A stretch of 64,000 nucleotides of DNA from Niabella sp. (GCA_027493055.1 JAPUDO010000126.1:11901-75900), one strand, 5' to 3'. Shown: positions 1,498-45,854, numbered from the stretch's first letter. Numbers and translations: made by a program. The notes: generated from the sequence alone by a model not told the origin.

Positions 1498-1979
1498 ATT
1501 TATGATGTAGGATATAGGATTTCAATAGTCCTTTCCTTATCCTGTTATTATTTATTCCTGATTTTTGATTTATCTGTAGCTGCAAAAATAGCTGTTAGTT
1601 CATTAGCCTCTTTAATCAACCTATCCACCTCTATTCCTGTTTTCAACTCAGCTTCTTTTACTACTTCAAGCCAATAATGACTTTCATCCGCTTCTTCTAA
1701 CACCACTTCAATCTTATATAAAAAGTCCGCCGCAGACTTTGTTCTTACTGTTGCCCTGTAATTTGCACCTACCGAACCTGCAGCTCTTATTAATTGTTTT
1801 GCAGTTTCAAAACCTGCTGTATTTCTGGGGAAATACGCACAAAGTCTAATAACATCAATATGAAATTTCTTTGCTCTGTTTTGTAATTCTTTTCTGTCCA
1901 TAATAAAACGTTTTAGTGCTTAACATTAGTGTTTAGTTTTATAAACTAACGCTCACATCAGACATCCTAGATCATAAAT
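1498..1979. repeat. Inverted heptamer-derived arms enclosing the four-helix-bundle gene
   Basis: ATTTATGATGTAGGAT (1498-1513) and ATCCTAGATCATAAAT (1964-1979) are reverse complements at 15/16; both lie in 7-bp-periodic arrays. Confidence 0.85.
1548..1901 (-). CDS. Four-helix-bundle protein (23S rRNA IVS / TIGR02436 / Avd-like family)
   Basis: 117 aa with KQLIRAAGSVGANYRA...FLYKIEVVLEEADESHYWLE, typical of the family. Confidence 0.88.
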   Translation of the reverse strand: MDRKELQNRAKKFHIDVIRLCAYFPRNTAGFETAKQLIRAAGSVGANYRATVRTKSAADFLYKIEVVLEEADESHYWLEVVKEAELKTGIEVDRLIKEANELTAIFAATDKSKIRNK

Positions 1980-3013: not shown

Positions 3014-4099
3014 TCAGACCGAGACGGTCAGACGGGGTGAATATTCCTTCACCGTATCCACAAATGCTTTTGCATGGTCTACAGGCACATTAGGCAGAAT
3101 ACCATGACCCAGATTGGCTATATGCCTGCCAGGGCCAAAAGCCTGCAACATTTCCTTCACCTCCTTTTGTATAACAGGAATGGGCGATAAGAGTTTGGCG
3201 GGATCAAAATTTCCCTGTAAAGCCCCCTTCCAGCTTTCCCCGGAGGAGGAAGAGGCAGTAGCTGTAAGCTGCCTTGCCATTTGCGGCTCTATGCACCAAT
3301 CTATGCCTAAACCATGAGCGCCGGTTGCGGCCATTTCACCTAAAGAGCTCCAGGCGCCTTTTGCAAAAATGATCGTTGGCGCTTCTTCTTTCACAGCCGC
3401 AACAATCTGCCTGATATATTGCAATGAGAACGTTTCAAAATCCTTTTTACCCAACAAGCCACCCCAGCTATCGAAGATCTGTACCAGATCCGCACCCGCG
3501 GCAATTTGTCCTTTTAAATAACTGATAGTAGTATCAGTGATCATCTGTAATAAAGTATGTGCAAGATCAGGGTTTTGATAACAAAAACCCTTGGCTTCAT
3601 CAAAGGTTTTGCTGCCCTTCCCCTGAACCATATAGCACAGCAACGTCCAGGGAGCGCCGGCAAAGCCGATCAATGGTACACGCCCGTTCAGCTCCTGCTT
3701 TATTAGTTTGATCGCATCAAATACATAATGAAGCGTATCATTTACATCGGGTACCTGTATACGCTTTAAGTCCTGCTGTGTTTTAATAGGCTGCGGTAGT
3801 AATGGCCCCTGCTTTTCTATCAGTTGCACTTCCATACCCATTGCCTGCGGCACTACTAAAATATCCGAAAACAAAATAGCAGCATCCACGCCAATAATAT
3901 CTACCGGCTGCAAAGTGATCTCGCAGGCCAGCTCCGGGTTCTGGCACCTTTCAAAGAAAGAGTATTTTTCTCTTAGTTTAATGTATTCGGGTAAATATCT
4001 CCCTGCCTGACGCATCATCCACACCGGGGTCCGTTCTGTTGCCTCACCTATTAAGGTTCTGACCAGTAAATCGTTCTTTAAATTTTTATTTCTTTTCAT
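3014..4099 (-). CDS. hemE: Uroporphyrinogen decarboxylase
   Basis: [40 protein letters not shown] and NLGHGILP. Confidence 0.97.
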
Positions 4100-4770
4100 G
4101 ATTCACCTATTTTTTCAAGCATCGAATGTATGCTCGGTTTCTCAGCTACAACAATATTTTCCTTGCTATACTTTAATAAAGCTTTTACCGTAGTAGTTCC
4201 TATACAATAATATTTTTGATGGGACGATGGGCTGTTCAGCTGAAAATAGCTTTCCACACCCGATGGACTGTAAAACATAATCCCCTCATAATGCTGCTCC
4301 GCTTTTTTCGGACTTGCTATGTTGTTATAGCAGATCACTTCTGATAACCTCAATTGCTGCTGCTGTAAAAAATCAGGGATAGTTGGTAACCTTTTATCCC
4401 CGCAAAATAAGACATAGCGGGCTTTTTCATCCACCTCTATTAACCGTATCAATTCACTGGCATAGTCTGCAGTAGCTATTACATTCAAAGAGGTTTGCTT
4501 TATCGCGTTACAAGTAGCCCCGGATATGCAATAAGTTTTATTTGTCAGTTCTTTTAAAATCTCAAACGCTGCCTGCACCGCATGCTGACTGGTAAAAATA
4601 AAAATATCGCCGGAAGTAATATCTCCCAGTTGCTGACGAATATCGGCTATGGATCTGTAATGAATATCAATAAAAGGAATACAATCTATAAGAATACCGC
4701 TCTCCTTTGCTTCATTTATTATAGCAGGGTCTAAAATTCTTGTGCTTAATATGGATATTGCAGACTTCAA
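4096..4770 (-). CDS. hemD: Uroporphyrinogen-III synthase (TTG start)
   Basis: IFTSQHAV and [11 protein letters not shown] motifs; lies between hemC and hemE; 4-nt overlap with hemE. Confidence 0.88.
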
Positions 4771-4771
4771 A

Positions 4772-5074
4772 CTATTTTTTGTGAAACGGATTTTTTGAAG
4801 GACGCATTCTTGTATCGTACATATTGAGCACTTCTATTGTATTGTTATTTATACGATAATAGAGTCTGTTATGTTTAGTTAATAGTATGGAACGACAATT
4901 CTTTCTACCGGAATTTGCTCCAACAAATGGATGGTTAGATAGCACAATCAGTCTTTTCAAAAGTTGCTCTTCAAATTTATTGGCAACACGTTCTCCCCAA
5001 TTTAATTCAAGATAATGCAGCAAACGAGAAACTTTATTAGCAAATCGTTTTGTTGCTATTATTTGGTACGCCAT
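4772..5074 (-). CDS. RelE/ParE-family type II toxin
   Basis: 100 aa basic protein with YLELNWGERV...HPFVG...RSILLTKHNRLYYRI...VLNMYDTR; overlaps the upstream small acidic ORF. Confidence 0.8.
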   Translation of the reverse strand: MAYQIIATKRFANKVSRLLHYLELNWGERVANKFEEQLLKRLIVLSNHPFVGANSGRKNCRSILLTKHNRLYYRINNNTIEVLNMYDTRMRPSKNPFHKK

Positions 5075-5301
5075 TGGGCTATTACTTTTTTAAAATCCTC
5101 AAATGATATCGCATCTTCTCCAAAAGGCTTATCGAGCATTTCCATTAATTCTGTGCTATCTTTTTCAGAAAGTTCGGGGAAAGTATCTTGCTGGCTTTGC
5201 GCATTAAAGTATTCAAAATCTATACTTAATAATTCCAAAAGATTTTCATTATTTGTTTTAGAAATTTTATCCAACAGATCCTGCTTTAAAGTAGTTTCCA
5301 T
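5059..5301 (-). CDS. Putative cognate antitoxin
   Basis: 80 aa acidic ORF directly upstream of the toxin and overlapping it by 16 nt; C-terminal ISFEDFKKVIAQW is typical of Bacteroidota antitoxins. Confidence 0.7.
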   Translation of the reverse strand: METTLKQDLLDKISKTNNENLLELLSIDFEYFNAQSQQDTFPELSEKDSTELMEMLDKPFGEDAISFEDFKKVIAQWRTK

Positions 5302-5327: not shown

Positions 5328-6284
5328 TCAGCCTCGTATTTTTTTTAGAATCCCGTTCATATCCTTTAAACATATTTCCTCAGCTGCGTATTTCCCGGCA
5401 TCATAACTATCTGCTTTGTCAAAAATCTTTTCTACTTCAACCTTATCTTTTCCATCAGGAGAAATAATATTTCCTTTAAATAATATTTCTCCGTTCGCTA
5501 TTTGAGCACGAGCGCTGATAGGTGTGGAGCATCCGCCCATTAAAGCACTTAGAAAATCGCGCTCTATTTTTACACAGGTTGCCGTATCAATGTCATTTAA
5601 AGCTGAACAGGCCGCAAGTGTATGGGTATCGTCAGTTCTGCCAACCACCATGATCGCGCCTTGCGCAGGAGCAGGCAACATCCAATCCAGGTCTATACTA
5701 TTTTCCGGCCGAAGGTTAATACGTTCCAAACCCGCTGCTGCAAAAATGGCCCCATCCCAATTACTTTCCGCCACTTTTTTCAAACGCGTATTTACATTAC
5801 CCCGCAGGTTTTCAATAGTCGTATTAGGGAAACGGTGCAGCCACTGTGCGCGGCGGCGGATACTGCTGGTGGCAATAGTAAGAGATGACAGTTGACGGTT
5901 GACAGTTGACAGGTTTTCTTCCTCTAAAACAATGAGGCTGTCATCTGTCATCTGTCCTCTGTGAACTAATATATCCTTATAATTCGCCCTTTTTAATACT
6001 GCAGCCTGGCTGATGCCCTGTGGCAATTGTACCGGCACATCTTTCATACTATGTACAGCAATATCAATCTTTTCTCCAAGGAGGGCAATATCAAGGCTGC
6101 GGGTAAACACACCCTGTACGCCCATTGCATATAATGGCGTTACCAGGTCTATATCACCTTCGCTTTTTATATAAACCAGCTCAGCCTTATGGCCATTACG
6201 TTCCAGCAAACTTTTTACAAGATCGGCCTGCCATACGGCCAGCTGGCTCTCGCGGGTACCTATTCGGATGGGGTTATTTTGCAT
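5328..6284 (-). CDS. hemC: Porphobilinogen deaminase
   Basis: IGTRESQLAVWQA, DIAVHSMKDVP, LRGNVNTRL, LPAPAQGA and GGCSTPI. Confidence 0.97.
   Translation of the reverse strand: MQNNPIRIGTRESQLAVWQADLVKSLLERNGHKAELVYIKSEGDIDLVTPLYAMGVQGVFTRSLDIALLGEKIDIAVHSMKDVPVQLPQGISQAAVLKRANYKDILVHRGQMTDDSLIVLEEENLSTVNRQLSSLTIATSSIRRRAQWLHRFPNTTIENLRGNVNTRLKKVAESNWDGAIFAAAGLERINLRPENSIDLDWMLPAPAQGAIMVVGRTDDTHTLAACSALNDIDTATCVKIERDFLSALMGGCSTPISARAQIANGEILFKGNIISPDGKDKVEVEKIFDKADSYDAGKYAAEEICLKDMNGILKKIRG
5883..5963. repeat. Heptamer palindrome (RG[A/T]TGAC)n inside the hemC coding sequence
   Basis: AGATGACAGTTGACGGTTGACAGTTGACAG (5883-5912) faces CTGTCATCTGTCATCTGTC (5938-5956). Confidence 0.85.
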
Positions 6285-33883: not shown

Positions 33884-33946
33884 AGATGACAGTTGAAAGT
33901 TGACAGATGACAGTAGTGCTGTCATCACCTATTCTCCGTCAACTAA
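33884..33946. repeat. Heptamer palindrome at the araD/araA junction
   Basis: AGATGAC AGTTGAA AGTTGAC AGATGAC AG followed by CTGTCATC...GTCAACT; same unit as in hemC. Confidence 0.8.
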
Positions 33947-34663: not shown

Positions 34664-34710
34664 TGTCCATGGTCGATAGTCCATGGTCCATTGACTATCG
34701 GCTATCGACT
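34664..34710. repeat. Heptamer palindrome at the araB/araD junction
   Basis: GTCCAT GGTCGAT AGTCCAT GGTCCAT TGACTAT CGGCTAT CGACT; GGTCGATAGTC pairs with GGCTATCGACT. Confidence 0.8.
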
Positions 34711-36349
34711 AAATGCTTTCCTCAATAAATTTTCCAAATGCTTCATATTGCTTCATACGTTTTGCGTAATAGGCCACGTTTTCGGGGATAGGATGGTATT
34801 CAGCATCAAAACCCTGGCCCATAGCCTTCATAGCATCGTTGACACTGGGATATAAACCGGCTACAGTTGCAGCAAACATGGCAGCGCCTGCAGCACAGGT
34901 TTGCTCAGATTTATGGATCTTGATAGGCATATTCATTACATCCGCCATTACCTGCATGATATATGGAGATTTCTTAGCTACTCCCCCTACCCCGATCAAT
35001 CCTTTCACCGGCACCCCTTCGCTGATAAACCTGTCAACTATTGCCCGCGCGCCAAAACAACTGGCTTCTACCAAAGCCTTAAAAATAGCAGGGGCATCGC
35101 TGCCCAGGTTCAGCCCCATAATGGCGCCTTTCATTAACTGGCTGGCATCGGGGGTACGGCGGCCGTTAAGCCAATCTACTGCCAGCTCATCTTCCTCATG
35201 CAGGGGAAGTTTAGCAGCAGCTTCCGAAAGTTCTTTTATGATCTTCGATCCAATGGTTTTTTGCAAATCTGCATCATCCAAAAACTGCAATGGCCAGGAA
35301 ATTAGATGCTTAAACCATGCATAAATATCTCCAAAAGCACTTTGTCCGGCTTCCAAACCAATCATTCCGGGAATCACCGAGCCATGCACCTGTCCACAGA
35401 TCCCGCGCACCAGCTTATCTCCAAACTCCTCTACGGGTACCACTAACATATCGCAGGTAGACGTGCCCATTACTTTACTTAGATAGTAAGGCTCTATCTG
35501 GCCGCCAACAGCGCCCATGTGCGCATCAAAAGCACCAATACCTACTATAACATCTGTACTCAGACCTAGTTTTTCTGCCCATTTTTCAGATAAATTTCCG
35601 GCTGCCAGGTCCGCAGTATAGGTATCAGCAGGCAGCTTTGAAGTAAAGCCTTCCAGTAGCGGGTCGAGGGAAGCGAAAAAGTCATTAGGCGGAAACCCTC
35701 CAAATGCTTCTGACCAGATACCTTTATGCCCCGCAGAGCAAACCCCGCGCTTAATATCTTTTACATCCTTTCCCCCCGTAAGAAGAAATGGCAGCCAGTC
35801 GCAATGCTCTACCCAGCTTGCTGTTGCGTTTCGCACTTTTTCATCTTCACGGAATACATGCAGCAGCTTTGCCCAGAACCATTCGCTGGAATATATGCCT
35901 CCTACATATTGCAGGTAGTTGGTATCAAATTTTGCAGCATGCCGGTTTATTTCATCCGCTTCCTTTATAGAAGTGTGGTCTTTCCATAAAACAAACATCG
36001 CATTAGGATTCTCAGCAAACTCAGCACTTAGCGCAAGCGGCGTACCCGTTGCATCTACAGCAACAGGAGTGGAACCCGTTGTGTCCACAGAAATACCTTT
36101 TACATTCCTGGCTACTTCAGGCCCGGCTTTTTCCAGGCACTCCTTAACAGTATGCACCAATCCCTCTACATAATCCAGCGGATGCTGGCGGAACTGGTTG
36201 GCAGCGGGATTACAATACAAACCTTTTTTCCAGCGCGGATATTCAAATACGGCAGCAGCAACTTCTTCCCCGTTACCTGCATTTAAAATAACCGATCTTA
36301 CAGAATCAGATCCGTAATCTACTCCTATTACATAAGCGTATTGAGACAT
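34709..36349 (-). CDS. araB: Ribulokinase
   Basis: GVDYGSDSVR, DTTGSTP, LWKDH, YSSEWFWAK, GAFDAHMGAVG and DWLNGRRTP. Confidence 0.96.
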   Translation of the reverse strand: MSQYAYVIGVDYGSDSVRSVILNAGNGEEVAAAVFEYPRWKKGLYCNPAANQFRQHPLDYVEGLVHTVKECLEKAGPEVARNVKGISVDTTGSTPVAVDATGTPLALSAEFAENPNAMFVLWKDHTSIKEADEINRHAAKFDTNYLQYVGGIYSSEWFWAKLLHVFREDEKVRNATASWVEHCDWLPFLLTGGKDVKDIKRGVCSAGHKGIWSEAFGGFPPNDFFASLDPLLEGFTSKLPADTYTADLAAGNLSEKWAEKLGLSTDVIVGIGAFDAHMGAVGGQIEPYYLSKVMGTSTCDMLVVPVEEFGDKLVRGICGQVHGSVIPGMIGLEAGQSAFGDIYAWFKHLISWPLQFLDDADLQKTIGSKIIKELSEAAAKLPLHEEDELAVDWLNGRRTPDASQLMKGAIMGLNLGSDAPAIFKALVEASCFGARAIVDRFISEGVPVKGLIGVGGVAKKSPYIMQVMADVMNMPIKIHKSEQTCAAGAAMFAATVAGLYPSVNDAMKAMGQGFDAEYHPIPENVAYYAKRMKQYEAFGKFIEESI

Positions 36350-38964: not shown

Positions 38965-40854
38965 ATGCTGGCCAGCCTTAGTAGTCAGCCTTTCAACGAT
39001 CCTGACTGGATCTTTGAAATAAAATGGGATGGCTACCGTGCTATAGCTGAAACAGGAAGTCATTTCAGGTTATATTCCAGGAACGGATTATCCTTTTCAG
39101 AAAAATTTCCTCCTGTGGCAACAGCTTTGCAAAACCAGGAACATGATATGATACTGGATGGTGAAATTGTGGCCTACAACGAAAACAACCTGCCTGATTT
39201 TCAGACCCTGCAACATTTTGGAGAAAATCCTGATACACCATTAGTGTACCAGGTATTTGATCTGCTTTATCTGAACGGGCATAGCACTACCTCGTTATCA
39301 ACAATCGAACGTAAAGAGCTTTTAAAAGAAGCATTGGCAGAAAATGATTTTGTAAAATATTGTGAGCATGTAGAACAAAGGGGCGTTGATTTTTTTAATG
39401 CTGCTAAAGAAAATAATCTTGAAGGTATCATTGCCAAGCGTGCTACAGCGCCTTATTCAGTTGGCAAACGCAGTGGCGACTGGCTTAAAATAAAACATCA
39501 CAATACCGAAGAAGCTGTTATTGCAGGTTTCACTGCACCACGTGGATCACGTAAAAAATTCGGTGCGCTGATACTGGGGCGGTATAAAGATAAAAAGCTG
39601 GTGTATGCGGGGCACACAGGAACTGGTTTTGACCAGCAGTCGCTAACAAAAGTGTATGACCAGTTACAGCCACTCATTACCAAAAAGTCGCCATTTGATA
39701 TAACGCCTAAAACAAATACACCGGCTACCTGGGTTCGGCCCGAACTGGTTTGCAATATAAAGTTCAGTGAACTGACAAAGGAACATATTTTCCGCCACCC
39801 TGTATTTATGGGATTACGTATAGATAAACCAGCCAAAGAAGTAACTATTCCTAAAAATGAAAAAACGATGGCAACAATTAAAAAGGCAGAAGGCAAAAAG
39901 CCTGAAGCAAAAAGCAGGACAGCTAAACATGCCAATAACCTGGAAGACAATCGCACGGTAAAGACCGGGACAAAAGAAGTAAAGCTCACCAACCAAAACA
40001 AAATGTACTGGCCGGACGAAGGGTACACCAAAGGCAACCTGGTTAACTATTATGAAAAAATGCACCCCTATATTCTTCCGTATTTAAAAAACAGGCCGGA
40101 AAGCCTGAACCGCTTTCCCAATGGAATTAAGGGCAGCAGCTTCTATCATAAAGATGCCGGTGATACAGCACCGGATTGGGTTGAATCTGTTGAAATATAT
40201 TCTGAAAGCACACAAAAAAATGTGGATTATATTATCTGCAACGACAAAGCAACACTTATATACCTGGCTATCCTGGTCTGCATTGAAATGTATCCCTTGA
40301 ATAGTACTGTCAACAAATTGGAGTATCCTACCTATATGATCATTGATATTGACCCATCTGGGAAAAACACATTTGACCAGGTAATAGACACCGCCCTGGC
40401 CACCAAACAGGTGCTGGATGAATGTGGGGCAACCTCCTATTGCAAAACATCCGGTGCATCCGGGCTGCATGTATTTGTGCCTATGGGCAACAAATATGAT
40501 TATGAGCAGGTTAAAACCTTTGCACATTTAACTGCTATGAAGATCACAGAATTATTGCCAGACATTACTACCCTGGAGCGCAATCTTAAAAAACGGGGCA
40601 ACAGAAAAATATATGTGGATTATCTGCAAAACCGGAAAGGGCAAACCATTGCCAGCGCTTACAGCGTGCGGCCTAAAAAGGGCGCTACAGTATCCGCCCC
40701 ACTGGACTGGAAGGAAGTAAAAAAAGGCCTGCACCCGTCACAGTTTGATATTAACACGGTCCCTAAGCGTGTAACCAGGCTGGGGGATATTTTTAAACCT
40801 GTGCTGGGAAAAGGCATTGATATTATGAAATGTTTGAAGAAGATGGAGGAGTAG
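38965..40854 (+). CDS. ligD: LigD ATP-dependent ligase plus primase-polymerase domains (3' part; frame open upstream to ~38872)
   Basis: EIKWDGYR, EGIIAKR, DWLKIK, KTSGASGLH and VDYLQNRKGQTIASAYSVRP. Confidence 0.93.
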   Translation: MLASLSSQPFNDPDWIFEIKWDGYRAIAETGSHFRLYSRNGLSFSEKFPPVATALQNQEHDMILDGEIVAYNENNLPDFQTLQHFGENPDTPLVYQVFDLLYLNGHSTTSLSTIERKELLKEALAENDFVKYCEHVEQRGVDFFNAAKENNLEGIIAKRATAPYSVGKRSGDWLKIKHHNTEEAVIAGFTAPRGSRKKFGALILGRYKDKKLVYAGHTGTGFDQQSLTKVYDQLQPLITKKSPFDITPKTNTPATWVRPELVCNIKFSELTKEHIFRHPVFMGLRIDKPAKEVTIPKNEKTMATIKKAEGKKPEAKSRTAKHANNLEDNRTVKTGTKEVKLTNQNKMYWPDEGYTKGNLVNYYEKMHPYILPYLKNRPESLNRFPNGIKGSSFYHKDAGDTAPDWVESVEIYSESTQKNVDYIICNDKATLIYLAILVCIEMYPLNSTVNKLEYPTYMIIDIDPSGKNTFDQVIDTALATKQVLDECGATSYCKTSGASGLHVFVPMGNKYDYEQVKTFAHLTAMKITELLPDITTLERNLKKRGNRKIYVDYLQNRKGQTIASAYSVRPKKGATVSAPLDWKEVKKGLHPSQFDINTVPKRVTRLGDIFKPVLGKGIDIMKCLKKMEE

Positions 40855-40908
40855 TCCATAGTCCATGGACCATCGTCTATGGACTATCGGTCAAATGACT
40901 AAATGATG
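40853..40908. repeat. Heptamer palindrome between ligD and the prfC promoter
   Basis: AGTCCAT AGTCCAT GGACCAT CGTCTAT GGACTAT; AGTCCATAG/CTATGGACT 9-bp perfect stem; TATATTTG -7 box follows at 40910. Confidence 0.8.
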
Positions 40909-42526: not shown

Positions 42527-43020
42527 TCCGGAAGTTGGAAAGTCCGGGGTCCGAAAGATATGTCCTGACAGTTCAAAGTGGTTGAAAAGCTATCGTTGTC
42601 CCGAGGCATCAATTTTTGGTGCAAAATCAATGAAACGATAACCTATCCTTAATCGTCTTTTCAACTGGAATCCCAGGTTACCGGGATGGAGGGAAAAATC
42701 TCGACGTGAAGTTGCCTTTTGTATAAAGCATTATAGGCGGTACAATAAGTTTCAGGTTCACATTGAGACCCCACCCTACAGTCAGTAGAACTATGGGCTA
42801 TCAGTATATTACAAAATATATCATTGGCAGTCCGGAAGTCGGAGGTCGGAAGAAAACGCTTGCACAGTCAACAATCTCACCTTTCCCTTCGGGGAATTTT
42901 GAGTTCCACATTTCGGAACACTATGCAGGGGCCACAAGGTCCGGAAGTCCGAAGTCCGGAAGTCGTAAAGACAAGTGCTGAGAGTTGAAAGTGGTTGAAA
43001 TATCAGTTATTTCCAACTGA
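42525..43020. repeat. Duplicated ~70 bp unit (AGTCCGG-type array plus a 34-bp conserved block) in the prfC/purB gap
   Basis: 42554-42587 and 42967-43000 match at 29/34 without gaps; a third AGTCCGG array lies at 42829-42852. Confidence 0.75.
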
Positions 43021-43256: not shown

Positions 43257-44594
43257 TTAATATTTCGCAGCTATGCCCGTGTAATTATGCGGCGTAATTT
43301 TCTTTAGCTCTGCCTTTATTGCAGCAGGTACTTTCAAAGACCCAATAAATTTATGTAAGGATTGTTTGGTAATGCCTTCTTTGCCCCTTGTCAAATCTTT
43401 CAAAGCCTCATACGGGTTAGGATATTTTTCCCTGCGCAGAATGGTTTGAATAGCCTCTGCAACTACGGCCCAGTTACCTTCCAGGTCTGCTTTTAAAGCC
43501 GCTTCGTTCAGCACCAGTTTACCTAACCCCTTTTCTATGCTTTTAATAGCAATAATAGTGTGGGCAACAGGTACGCCAATATTGCGCAGCACGGTACTGT
43601 CTGTTAAATCCCTTTGAAGACGACTCACAGGCAATTTAGCCGAAAGATGCTCCAGCAGGGAGTTGGCTATACCCAGGTTGCCTTCTGCATTCTCAAAGTC
43701 AATAGGATTTACTTTATGCGGCATAGCCGATGAACCTACTTCTCCGGCTTTGGTTTGCTGCTTAAAGTATTCCATGCTGATATAGGTCCAGATATCACGG
43801 CACAGATCCAGCAATATGGTATTGATCCGTTTTATACAATCGAAGTGCGCCGCCAGGTTATCGTAATGTTCTATTTGCGTGGTAAACTGCATCCTTTGCA
43901 ATCCCAGCACTTCTTCTACGAAATAGTTCCCGAATTTTATCCAGTCTGTTTTTGGATAAGCAACATGATGCGCATTAAAATTACCGGTAGCACCACCAAA
44001 TTTAGCAGATACAGGGATATAAGAAAACAATTGAACCTGGTTTTCGATCCTTTCTACAAATACCATTATCTCCTTACCCAATCTTGTTGGAGAAGCCGGC
44101 TGGCCGTGCGTTTTGGCCAGCATAGGTATTTCTTTCCATTGCCGGGCCAGCTCGTGTAAATGATTTTGCAGGTTCAGATAAGCGGGTAACAATTCAAACT
44201 CCAAACTATGCTTCCAAAGTAAAGGAATGGCTGTGTTATTAATATCCTGCGAGGTAAGTCCAAAATGGATCCATTCTTTGGCGTCTTTGGCGTCTGTTTT
44301 ATCTAATTCACTTTTCAGGAAATACTCTACCGCTTTTACATCATGATTTGTGGTTTTTTCAATCTCCTTTATGGCTTCAGCATTTTCCACGCTGAAGTGT
44401 TCTATTACATTGCGTAAATGTTTTTTTGCAGAGGCCGTCAGCTTTAAAAACTTTTTATCAGACAATAAAAACAGGTATTCGATCTCTACAATTACCCTGT
44501 ATTTGATAAGGGCATATTCACTGAAATATTCCTGCAGGTTTTGTACCTGTTTGCTGTAGCGGCCGTCTATAGGCGAAATTGCTGTTAAAGACAT
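43257..44594 (-). CDS. purB: Adenylosuccinate lyase
   Basis: LTAISPIDGRY, TNHDVKAVEY, THGQPASPT and GSSAMPHKVNPIDFENAEGN. Confidence 0.98.
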   Translation of the reverse strand: MSLTAISPIDGRYSKQVQNLQEYFSEYALIKYRVIVEIEYLFLLSDKKFLKLTASAKKHLRNVIEHFSVENAEAIKEIEKTTNHDVKAVEYFLKSELDKTDAKDAKEWIHFGLTSQDINNTAIPLLWKHSLEFELLPAYLNLQNHLHELARQWKEIPMLAKTHGQPASPTRLGKEIMVFVERIENQVQLFSYIPVSAKFGGATGNFNAHHVAYPKTDWIKFGNYFVEEVLGLQRMQFTTQIEHYDNLAAHFDCIKRINTILLDLCRDIWTYISMEYFKQQTKAGEVGSSAMPHKVNPIDFENAEGNLGIANSLLEHLSAKLPVSRLQRDLTDSTVLRNIGVPVAHTIIAIKSIEKGLGKLVLNEAALKADLEGNWAVVAEAIQTILRREKYPNPYEALKDLTRGKEGITKQSLHKFIGSLKVPAAIKAELKKITPHNYTGIAAKY

Positions 44595-44599
44595 TTTTA

Positions 44600-45080
44600 T
44601 TTAGTTGATAGTTCATGGTTGATGGTTCATGGAAGAACAAATCCAACCTATTACATAGATTCTCTGAGTTTGGTTATCATTTTACATAACAATTCATACT
44701 CGTTATAATACTTTTTAAACGATTCTTCGGTAATATAAGTTCTCATTTTTGACAGAAAAAGACAGGCCACAACCTCTATTGATGATTCTAAGTGCAATAT
44801 TTAAAAACCTCTTAAACTCTGGCACGGATTGCCCTGTGCTTCCCTCTGCAATATTCAATACAACAGAATCCGCCGCCCGTTTTATTTGAGAAGCAAGGTT
44901 AAAACGCTCTTCCACGGAAAACTGCCTTGCCAGCAAATCTATCTCGTTTGACAATTCCGCGGTTTTATGCCACACCTTCAAATCTTCAAATCTAAACGCC
45001 ATAGTTGAGAGTTAATAGTTCATTGCTTATAGTTCATAGCCTGTTCTGTGCGAACCATGAACCATGAACCATGAACTAAA
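44600..45080. repeat. Inverted (RGTT[C/G]AT)n arms enclosing the second four-helix-bundle gene
   Basis: 44600-44628 and 45052-45080 are reverse complements at 26/29; a third array at 45003-45039 can also pair with 45052-45080. Confidence 0.85.
44651..45002 (-). pseudogene. Four-helix-bundle (IVS/Avd-like) gene with a +1 frameshift
   Basis: MAFRFEDLKVW...SQIKRAADSVVLNIAEGS...FKRFLNIALR. Removing one A at ~44786 restores SSIEVVACLFLSKMRTYITEESFKKYYNEYELLCKMITKLRESM* ending at 44651. Confidence 0.8.
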
Positions 45081-45110: not shown

Positions 45111-45854
45111 GTGGAAGAAAAGATAAGAGTAGGCATTGTTAGTTATTTAAACACACGACCGCTGATCTATGGCCTGGAACGGCTCTCGATAAAAGATAAG
45201 ATAGCGCTGATAGAAGAACATCCCGCCTTATTGGCAGACAAGCTCAAAAACGGAGAGATTGACCTGGGGTTAGTGCCTGTGGCTGTAATCCCAAAGCTAC
45301 CTCAGAGCTATATCAACGGGAATTATTGCATAGGATCGGTTGGTGATGTGGCCTCTGTAGCGCTCTTTAGTGAAGCGCCGGTTGAACATATCCGGAAAAT
45401 ATATCTTGATTACCAGAGCCGCTCATCGGTGCAACTCCTGCAATGGCTGATAAAGCATCACTGGAAAACAGATCCTGAATATATTACCGCTAATGACGAA
45501 AGCTACATAAAAGAAATAAAGGGTGATACAGCAGCCCTGATCATCGGAGACAGGGCATTAAAACAGCGGCAACACTCGAAATATATTTACGACCTGGCCG
45601 GCGAATGGAAAGCAGCCACCGGCCTGCCTTTTGTATTTGCGGCCTGGGTAAGCACACGGGAACTGCCTGGCGGGTTTATTAAAGAATTTGATGAAGCCAA
45701 TGGATATGGGTTACAGCATATAGATGAAATAGCCGCCGAGCATGATAATGGTATTTATGATTTAAAGAAATATTTTTCGCATAATCTCAGCTATGAGCTG
45801 GACGAAGAGAAAAGAAAAGGGCTGGAGCTGTTTTTGAACAGTATTATGCAATAA
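45111..45854 (+). CDS. mqnA: Chorismate dehydratase (futalosine menaquinone pathway)
   Basis: VGIVSYLNTRPLIYG, LIIGDRAL and DLAGEWKAATGLPFVFAAW. Confidence 0.9.
   Translation: MEEKIRVGIVSYLNTRPLIYGLERLSIKDKIALIEEHPALLADKLKNGEIDLGLVPVAVIPKLPQSYINGNYCIGSVGDVASVALFSEAPVEHIRKIYLDYQSRSSVQLLQWLIKHHWKTDPEYITANDESYIKEIKGDTAALIIGDRALKQRQHSKYIYDLAGEWKAATGLPFVFAAWVSTRELPGGFIKEFDEANGYGLQHIDEIAAEHDNGIYDLKKYFSHNLSYELDEEKRKGLELFLNSIMQ

Follow-up and report, generated by a model that had tools for sequence, protein, structure and literature searches.

In the hem operon of Niabella sp., a small gene for a four-helix-bundle (4HB) protein lies between hemF and hemB, enclosed by an inverted repeat that is built of 7-nt units. 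This arrangement raises the question of whether the repeats belong to the gene, to the site that it occupies or to the control of the downstream gene hemB. The protein is of the same family as those encoded in rRNA intervening sequences (IVS); to our knowledge, the function of rRNA intervening-sequence proteins has been unknown since 1993, and we know of no established origin for bacterial heptamer repeats either. Here we describe the locus in its window, a stretch of 64,000 nucleotides (GCA_027493055.1 JAPUDO010000126.1:11901-75900) from whose first letter all positions given without a contig are counted, and compare it with other loci of the same genome, with genomes of the same genus and with the closest relatives of the encoded protein.

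The cassette in the hem operon

The window opens with the hem operon region, a stretch of 6.3 kb in which every gene is encoded on the minus strand. The first in transcription order is hemC (5328–6284), followed by genes for a RelB-like protein (80 aa, 5059–5301) and a ParE toxin (100 aa, PF05016, 4772–5074), which form a pair between hemC and hemD, and then by hemD (4096–4770) and hemE (3014–4099). The cassette (1498–1979, 482 bp) is located between two co-oriented neighbours, hemF directly upstream (2000–2947; coproporphyrinogen III oxidase; PF01218, E = 8.8e-124) and hemB directly downstream (502–1491; delta-aminolevulinate dehydratase; PF00490, E = 1.2e-141). Beyond hemB, a HemN-like open reading frame (ORF), assigned from its N-terminal sequence only, runs off the window at position 2. 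In three other genomes (G011, G014 and G006), the hemC–hemD junction lacks the RelB-like/ParE pair (4772–5301), and in one of them, G011, hemD and hemE are separated by a gene for a membrane protein of 265 aa.

In the direction of transcription, the cassette begins 20 nt after the hemF stop codon with the upstream, hemF-proximal (5') arm (1957–1979, sense strand ATTTATGATCTAGGATGTCTGAT; core 1964–1979), which consists of G/T-rich 7-nt units of the GATnTnn type. A spacer (1902–1956), which forms a small local hairpin in the predicted fold, leads to the ATG of the 117-aa 4HB gene (1548–1901; TIGR02436/PF05635), the sole ORF between the arms. The downstream, hemB-proximal (3') arm (1498–1520, sense strand ATCCTATATCCTACATCATAAAT; core 1498–1513) consists of A/C-rich units and is separated from the hemB ATG by an A-rich leader of 6 nt, ACTAAA (1492–1497). 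The core arms, ATTTATGATGTAGGAT at 1498–1513 and ATCCTAGATCATAAAT at 1964–1979, are complementary at 15 of 16 positions, and an inverted-repeat search extended the pair to 23 nt (1498–1520 and 1957–1979), of which 19 (83%) are paired at a distance of 436 nt. The arm has a period-7 self-match of 0.78. Of 394 windows of 318 nt that were drawn at random from the genome and scored identically, 0.5% had a flanking inverted repeat at the level of this cassette (score of at least 13) and 5% had one with a score of at least 11. Direct reading, the repeat search and the profile matches together bear out the initial annotation, which had described a 482-bp unit whose 15/16 arms enclose a lone 117-aa 4HB gene and end 6 nt before the hemB ATG.

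The 117-aa protein scores 76 bits against TIGR02436 (cut-off 24) and 54.9 bits against PF05635 (cut-off 33.8), and is therefore a member of this family. Among solved structures, the closest to it in sequence is PDB 2RLD (E = 2.4e-13), an entry with five chains, and the S23p protein of X. campestris is a pentamer (cited in PMC4990558); by similarity to these, the 4HB protein encoded here is predicted to form a pentameric ring. The defence-system models of PADLOC gave 0 matches to the protein at E ≤ 0.01, and for this reason a reading of the cassette as an anti-phage defence system was dropped.

Inverted heptamer arrays as a rule of the 4HB family

Arms around 4HB genes are a family rule and not a product of chance. 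This genome (5.75 Mb, 131 contigs) contains about 18 TIGR02436 loci, and flanking inverted arms, each with a score of at least 11 and with spans of 396–536 bp, were identified at 18 of 18. Their sequences differ from locus to locus, and nearly all are tandem arrays of 7-nt units. Another 110 loci, taken from 34 genomes of the genus, brought the sample to 125 distinct loci, 86 of which have clear arms, so that the initial proposal to look for complementary arms at other 4HB genes was answered in the affirmative both in the genome and in the genus. The best period was 7 in 68 of these 86 loci and 8 in 14; the arms have a median length of 27 nt, or about four units, and the armed cassettes a median span of 493 bp. 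In 67 of the 86, G and T are more frequent in the 5' arm than in the 3' arm, a polarity that reads alike on both strands. Neighbouring genes in the genus are mostly co-oriented with the cassette (77/84 downstream, 59/84 upstream), and the distance from the end of the 3' arm to the next start codon has a median of 10 nt in the genus and 8.5 nt among the close relatives described below. We refer to heptamer-armed 4HB cassettes, about 0.4–0.55 kb in total, as a working class and not as a published family; the cassette at hemF–hemB belongs to it, with its 4HB gene between inverted 7-nt arrays of about four units each, directly upstream of a co-oriented gene.

A second cassette of like design was found in the window on the minus strand (44609–45078), with arms at 44609–44632 and 45055–45078 made of GTTCATG units. 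Its 4HB gene is truncated or frameshifted (95-aa ORF at 44715–45002); purB (43257–44594) follows 14 nt downstream of the cassette, and a menaquinone-synthesis gene at 45111 lies on the other side in divergent orientation. In another genome (G010, contig C13), two loci 1.7 kb apart (L070 and L071) have 4HB genes that are 95% identical: one has both arms, and the other has no 5' arm and an expanded 3' array of about 80 nt composed of AATTCGT/AATTCAT units.

Arms follow the gene lineage

Among the 71 scorable loci of close relatives, arms are present in 57, and 54 of these have period 7. In every class of site (hemF–hemB, cysD–cysN, hemH and others), the units are of the GATGTCT, GATGTAG or GATnTnn type and are read as AGACATC in the 3' arm. 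Other 4HB lineages of the genus rarely have the motif GATGnnnGATG, which occurs in only 7 of their 85 armed loci; their units include GACAGTT, GTTCATG, AGTCCGG, TGAGTGA and more. The unit sequence is thus specific to the gene lineage, the lineage of the hem cassette having GATGTCT/GATGTAG units on the 5' side and AGACATC units on the 3' side, and copies related to the hem cassette have arrived at further junctions within operons, cysD–cysN among them. Short-term co-inheritance alone would also keep a gene lineage and its arm type together. In the GACAG-type and AGTGG/AGTAGG-type lineages, the homology of relatives is likewise confined to the cassette.

A case of copying is found in this genome in another lineage, where three decayed paralogues are 82–88% identical from arm to arm and have unrelated flanks. 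Because their homology starts and stops at the arms, the whole armed unit must have been copied, and the arms belong to the unit and not to the insertion site. The suggestion in the initial annotation that the arms could serve as ends of a unit is supported by these three copied units, from the occurrence of the same heptamer type at other sites and from the empty, intact, broken and remnant junctions described in the next section. No target-site duplication was seen at the three copied units, and no enzyme for movement of the cassette was identified. A transposon or MITE with terminal inverted repeats was ruled out: there is no transposase (the 4HB gene is the only gene), the arms differ between lineages, and only three related copies, in one lineage and with no visible target duplication, were found. 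The hem cassette itself is single-copy in the genome, and its arm 14-mers recur at one other site; since it is single-copy and nearly all of its inheritance is vertical, the term 'mobile' rests here on rare events over family-level time.

History of the hemF–hemB junction

Seven states of the hemF–hemB junction were found within the genus. The junction is empty, with spacers of 39–52 nt, in G014, G003 and G023, and also in the outgroups (6–18 nt), so the empty sites in relatives that the initial annotation had proposed to look for do exist. The cassette is intact in G000, G011, G006 and G016; in G018, G022, G004 and G017 it is present, but its gene has suffered a frameshift or an internal deletion. 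In G012 (101 nt), G001 (153 nt), G020 (175 nt) and G024, the gene is gone and the arms are kept; the final ~12 codons of the 4HB gene are still present in the G001 and G024 remnants, which shows that these two sites once contained the gene and were not gene-free hairpins from the outset. A solo heptamer array accompanied by a 298-aa gene is found in G008, G009 and G013 (L019, L017 and L018), an unrelated small ORF in G007, and in G021 and G002 hemB does not adjoin hemF. The solo arrays of G008, G009 and G013 consist of 5–8 AAATCTC/AAATCTG heptamers right after the hemF stop codon, with neither an inverted partner nor a 4HB gene.

A gene for a secreted protein of about 298 aa shares the junction with the cassette in G004, G006, G016 and G024 (L005, L007, L008 and L021), two of which, G006 and G016, have the intact cassette. 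The same four genomes have a second 3'-end remnant of a 4HB gene (..FAATDK..stop) directly upstream of the 5' arm, which may reflect repeated insertion at one spot.

In a maximum-likelihood tree of hemB and hemF (a topology without support values), filled and remnant states occur in all three clades, with the empty ones nested among them; recombination at the hem locus is likely. Searching species-level genomes with the single 4HB protein as the query, we found that its 80 closest relatives all come from Chitinophagaceae/Chitinophagales, including the genera Lacibacter, Terrimonas, Segetibacter, Niabella, Parafilimonas and Ferruginibacter. Fifty-eight of the 80 are located at hemF–hemB, 6 at cysD–cysN, 3 beside hemH and about 11 elsewhere. 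The states of the junction in the genus, the hemB and hemF tree and the 58 relatives at the same junction together indicate that the insertion is old, mostly vertically inherited and repeatedly decayed. The cassette entered a short hemF–hemB spacer before the present genera of Chitinophagaceae diverged and has since been transmitted mostly vertically, and in many relatives it is decaying, through frameshifts, internal deletions or loss of all but the arms or a short hairpin.

Constraint on the arms

Such widespread decay would be expected if the cassette had no function and were a neutral relic of one ancient insertion whose inverted repeat is slow to disappear: the gene is broken at half of the filled hem sites, and at several it has gone altogether. 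Similarly, the S23p ORF of Coxiella is apparently untranslated and degenerating (PMC4990558). Substitution rates in orthologous cassettes point the other way. The arms have accumulated 0.160 substitutions per site, compared to 0.182 in the spacer between the 5' arm and the ATG, 0.145 in the gene overall and 0.277 at third codon positions; because they evolve more slowly than third codon positions, the arms appear to be constrained. Stem pairs changed on both sides number 17 of 493 (8.1 expected), and Watson-Crick pairing is kept in 10 of them (2.7 expected; p = 0.027), an excess of compensatory changes which indicates that arm pairing matters to some degree. Single-sided arm changes far exceed compensatory ones (201 versus 24), as a relic would have it. 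Nevertheless, the 4HB gene at the hem site is intact here and in many genera, with 64–84% identity, and the heptamer type has been kept across a bacterial family. Taken with the slow arms and the compensatory excess, this makes a functionless relic very improbable.

Pairing of the arms as RNA or DNA

The main suggestion of the initial annotation concerned RNA. In a pure RNA device of this kind, pairing of the arms in the mRNA would fold the cassette out of the hem transcript, and expression of hemB would be set either by occlusion of the leader or by cleavage with RNase III; the gene would be a cofactor or cargo. Several observations fit such a scheme. Minimum-energy and centroid folds of the predicted RNA both close the cassette via its arms, compensatory changes are in excess, the 3' arm ends 6 nt from the hemB ATG with a spacing that recurs across the family, and the downstream genes of the genus loci are co-oriented in 77 of 84 cases. 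The genome encodes one RNase III, and excision by this enzyme has a precedent in the IVS (PMC4990558).

Other observations speak against it. The energy of the predicted fold is no better than that of shuffled sequences (z = -0.63). Selection on an RNA stem usually leaves a bias of G:U over A:C mismatches. On the sense strand, this bias is absent both in the standing arms (85 versus 88, with 212 transversions) and among the changes between orthologues (62 versus 52), and pairing at the DNA level or recognition of the unit sequence is therefore at least as likely as a sense-RNA stem. Duplex energies calculated for RNA on 210-nt flanks favoured the sense strand at 13 of 18 loci, but these duplexes are sprawling and the counts of mismatch types are to be preferred. 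Moreover, the heptamer sequence is kept across sites and genera to a greater extent than structure needs; the same design precedes unrelated genes (hemB, purB, cysN and others) and hence is not hem-specific; and hemB stays beside hemF in relatives in which the junction is empty or the cassette has decayed. We therefore regard a pure RNA device as rather unlikely.

The cassette does not appear to bring a promoter of its own. Armed cassettes show no enrichment of the Bacteroidetes -7 box (TAnnTTTG), which was found in 6 of the 86 versus 5.9 expected and not in this one, and sigma-70 scans were at the level of shuffled sequences, so the own-promoter hypothesis was dropped. Terminator scans were likewise at the shuffle level, with no terminator between hemF and hemB, and Rfam contained no RNA family matching positions 1300–2200 of the window. 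The gap of 6 nt between the arm and the hemB ATG is the norm of the family and provides no evidence of a hemB-specific switch; it is largely what would be expected from insertion into a short operon spacer, because the empty spacers themselves measure 39–52 nt, and 6–18 nt in the outgroups. A regulatory role of the cassette specific to hemB is no more than a possibility.

Heptamer arrays in the rest of the genome

Tandem arrays with a TRF score of at least 32 number 483 at period 7 in this genome, 283 at period 8, 232 at period 9 and 192 at period 10, and the period-7 arrays have a modal copy number of 4–4.5 units. Gene-less arrays outnumber 4HB genes by about 25 to 1 (483 versus 18), suggesting that arrays may have a life of their own. 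When 14-mers from the arms of 4HB cassettes were searched, they were found at 175 other sites of the genome, versus 40 with shuffled arms, and many of the 175 are gene-less hairpins or patchworks of solo arrays. A search for arm copies with 11-mers stayed at the chance level for a 5.7-Mb genome, and pairing of TRF arrays by consensus unit suffered from too much noise, as the units of a single arm are not alike.

Among six genomes of the genus, those with 0, 1, 1, 11, 12 and 18 4HB genes have 2.7, 0.2, 0.5, 3.2, 11.0 and 8.4 period-7 arrays per 100 kb, respectively. The rank correlation between the density of period-7 arrays and the number of 4HB genes (Spearman rho 0.75, p = 0.08, n = 6; rho 0.06 for periods 8–10) makes this link at the genome level suggestive only.

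Short-unit arrays also occur in other settings. Within hemC (5886–5962, minus strand), an in-frame gene-less hairpin consists of GACAGAT GACAGAT GACAG, a 25-nt loop and CTGTCAA CTGTCAA CCGTCAA CTGTCAT, and encodes a linker, RGQMTDDSLIVLEEENLSTVNRQLSSLT, between DILVH and IATSS. The hemC linker of G006 is homologous, that of G014 is shorter and different, and that of G011 is longer with a KSEIS...KSEIS repeat. Further intergenic period-7/8 arrays of the window are located at 33887–33914, 34665–34711, 40852–40877 and 42833–42964 (TGACAGT, GTCCATG, TAGTCCA and GTCCGGAA), and intergenic patchworks of several array types were seen elsewhere in the genome, for example, at C100:6200 and C87:10000. 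In G000, small genes with a GxxExxY motif (C46:125641-126112 and C75:20648-21310), PD-(D/E)XK-like by motif only, are boxed by inverted 8-nt arrays (CACATAGG / CACAGATG) in the same layout as the 4HB cassettes, and a 108-aa ORF of Rieske/NirD type, as judged by eye, lies between inverted arrays of ACTCATT-type heptamers (C106:26614-27030).

These arrays suggest a different order of events, in which the hairpin came first and the gene second: heptamer hairpins would be an independent class of repeats, like the cyanobacterial STRR or the heptamers of Xanthomonas, the arms would belong to the site, and the 4HB gene would be a passenger. The excess of 483 period-7 arrays over 18 4HB genes, the many gene-less hairpins and solo-array patchworks and the translated hairpin in hemC can all be read in this way, as can the boxing of other small genes (GxxExxY-type, Rieske-like) by inverted short-unit arrays and, at hemF–hemB itself, the short arm-loop-arm hairpins of G024 and G012. 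Arms that belonged to the site would not, however, accompany a protein lineage, as the GATGTCT-type arms do at cysD–cysN, hemH and other unrelated sites, nor would the arms and the limits of the unit be common to the three copies in this genome. Of the hairpins at the hem junction, those of G001 and G024 retain the last 4HB codons, and genomes with 0–1 4HB genes contain almost no heptamer arrays. On balance, a passenger gene in a pre-existing hairpin appears improbable, slightly more so than the RNA device.

Comparison with known systems

The closest described counterpart of the cassette is the ORF-bearing 23S rRNA IVS, known in Leptospira and Coxiella burnetii (PMC4990558). We take a 23S IVS to be a unit of about 0.4–0.8 kb in a 23S rRNA helix (9, 25 or 45) that has terminal inverted repeats and an S23p/IVP ORF and is excised by RNase III without religation. 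The IVS of C. burnetii, in helix 45, measures 428–444 nt and has a 28-bp terminal stem, three tandem GACAGAT heptamers and an S23p ORF, and is excised by RNase III (PMC4990558). Our cassette shares with the ORF-bearing IVS the S23p/PF05635 family, the size class (482 bp here), the terminal inverted repeats and the ORF in the loop, and with that of Coxiella also the tandem heptamers in the arm region and an ORF that is often degenerating. In contrast to an IVS, it is located in the hemF–hemB spacer of an mRNA operon, and RNase III excision is proven for the IVS only; its relatives reach up to 18 copies per genome, each lineage has its own heptamer, and gene-less arrays are dispersed throughout the genome. 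Because the cassette lies in an mRNA operon spacer and not in an rRNA helix, the defining location of the class, we do not file it as an IVS. ORFs of the 23S_rRNA_IVP type are also found in rRNA insertions of CPR bacteria (PMC11270868). Literature searches yielded no account of a 4HB gene flanked by inverted heptamer arrays within an operon of protein-coding genes.

Diversity-generating retroelements (DGRs) encode an accessory protein, Avd, a pentameric, basic 4HB protein that binds nucleic acid and the reverse transcriptase of the retroelement. Avd belongs to the same Pfam family as the protein encoded here. In the hem cassette, by contrast, the 4HB gene stands alone between inverted heptamer arrays, and no reverse transcriptase (RVT_1) was detected in the whole 99.99%-complete genome, whereas controls in E. 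coli, B. thetaiotaomicron and M. acetivorans were positive. The lack of a genomic reverse transcriptase shows that this is not a DGR/Avd system.

In REP/REPIN systems, a RAYT transposase gene is flanked by inverted REPs, and many gene-less REP doublets are found in the genome. On paper, the likeness is considerable: a single gene is bracketed by its own inverted repeat, the type of repeat is that of the lineage, and gene-less copies are scattered between genes. Unlike RAYT, the 4HB protein has no known catalytic motif and is not a Y1 HUH transposase, and no movement has been observed; unlike REPs, which are single palindromic units, the arms are tandem 7-nt arrays.

The intergenic heptamer repeats of Xanthomonas and Nostoc (GGGNATC and STRR) prefer about four units, lie between co-oriented genes and near gene ends, and are mostly transcribed (PMC4692102). 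The arrays described here resemble them in being tandem 7-nt repeats of about four units that are enriched between co-oriented genes. They differ in forming inverted pairs around a 4HB gene and in a density that tracks the number of 4HB genes within the genus; the study of Xanthomonas and Nostoc linked their heptamers to no gene.

A two-part cassette family

The explanation that we favour, and consider fairly probable as a whole, including the steps that follow, is that the locus is a resident copy of a two-part cassette family, which combines a promoterless 4HB gene with two inverted 7-nt arrays of about four units each. The cassette would be transcribed by read-through of the hem operon, as suggested by its co-oriented neighbours and by the absence of a promoter box and a terminator. 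Its two arms would pair, as RNA or as DNA, in keeping with the compensatory changes. From the fact that the unit sequence itself is conserved, and not only its pairing, we infer that the putatively pentameric 4HB protein would recognise its own heptamer array. Paired arms in the transcript would likely be a substrate of RNase III, by analogy with rRNA intervening sequences of the same protein family, and cleavage would then separate the hemF, cassette and hemB RNAs and leave hemB with a short A-rich leader.

A broader generalisation, which we offer tentatively, is that S23p/IVP pentamers recognise their own 7-nt arrays by sequence, and that gene and arrays constitute a RAYT/REPIN-like class of elements. 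The gene-less arrays, including that of hemC, might then be dispersed products of such elements, and the rRNA IVS might be copies that landed in rRNA.

Together with its relatives, this locus ties the IVS proteins to heptamer repeats: the repeat type tracks the protein lineage, the arms are constrained, and array density tracks gene number. The deep conservation at one junction, the graded series of decay and the link between lineage and heptamer across sites sharpen the connection here. The cassette family also explains why genes annotated as 'four helix bundle protein' turn up repeatedly within essential operons of Bacteroidota. Cultured carriers include Lacibacter cauensis, Segetibacter koreensis, Terrimonas pollutisoli and Niabella hirudinis. 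That the repeat type tracks the protein lineage makes the puzzle of the rRNA IVS proteins testable, by comparing the binding of cognate and non-cognate pairs of protein and array.
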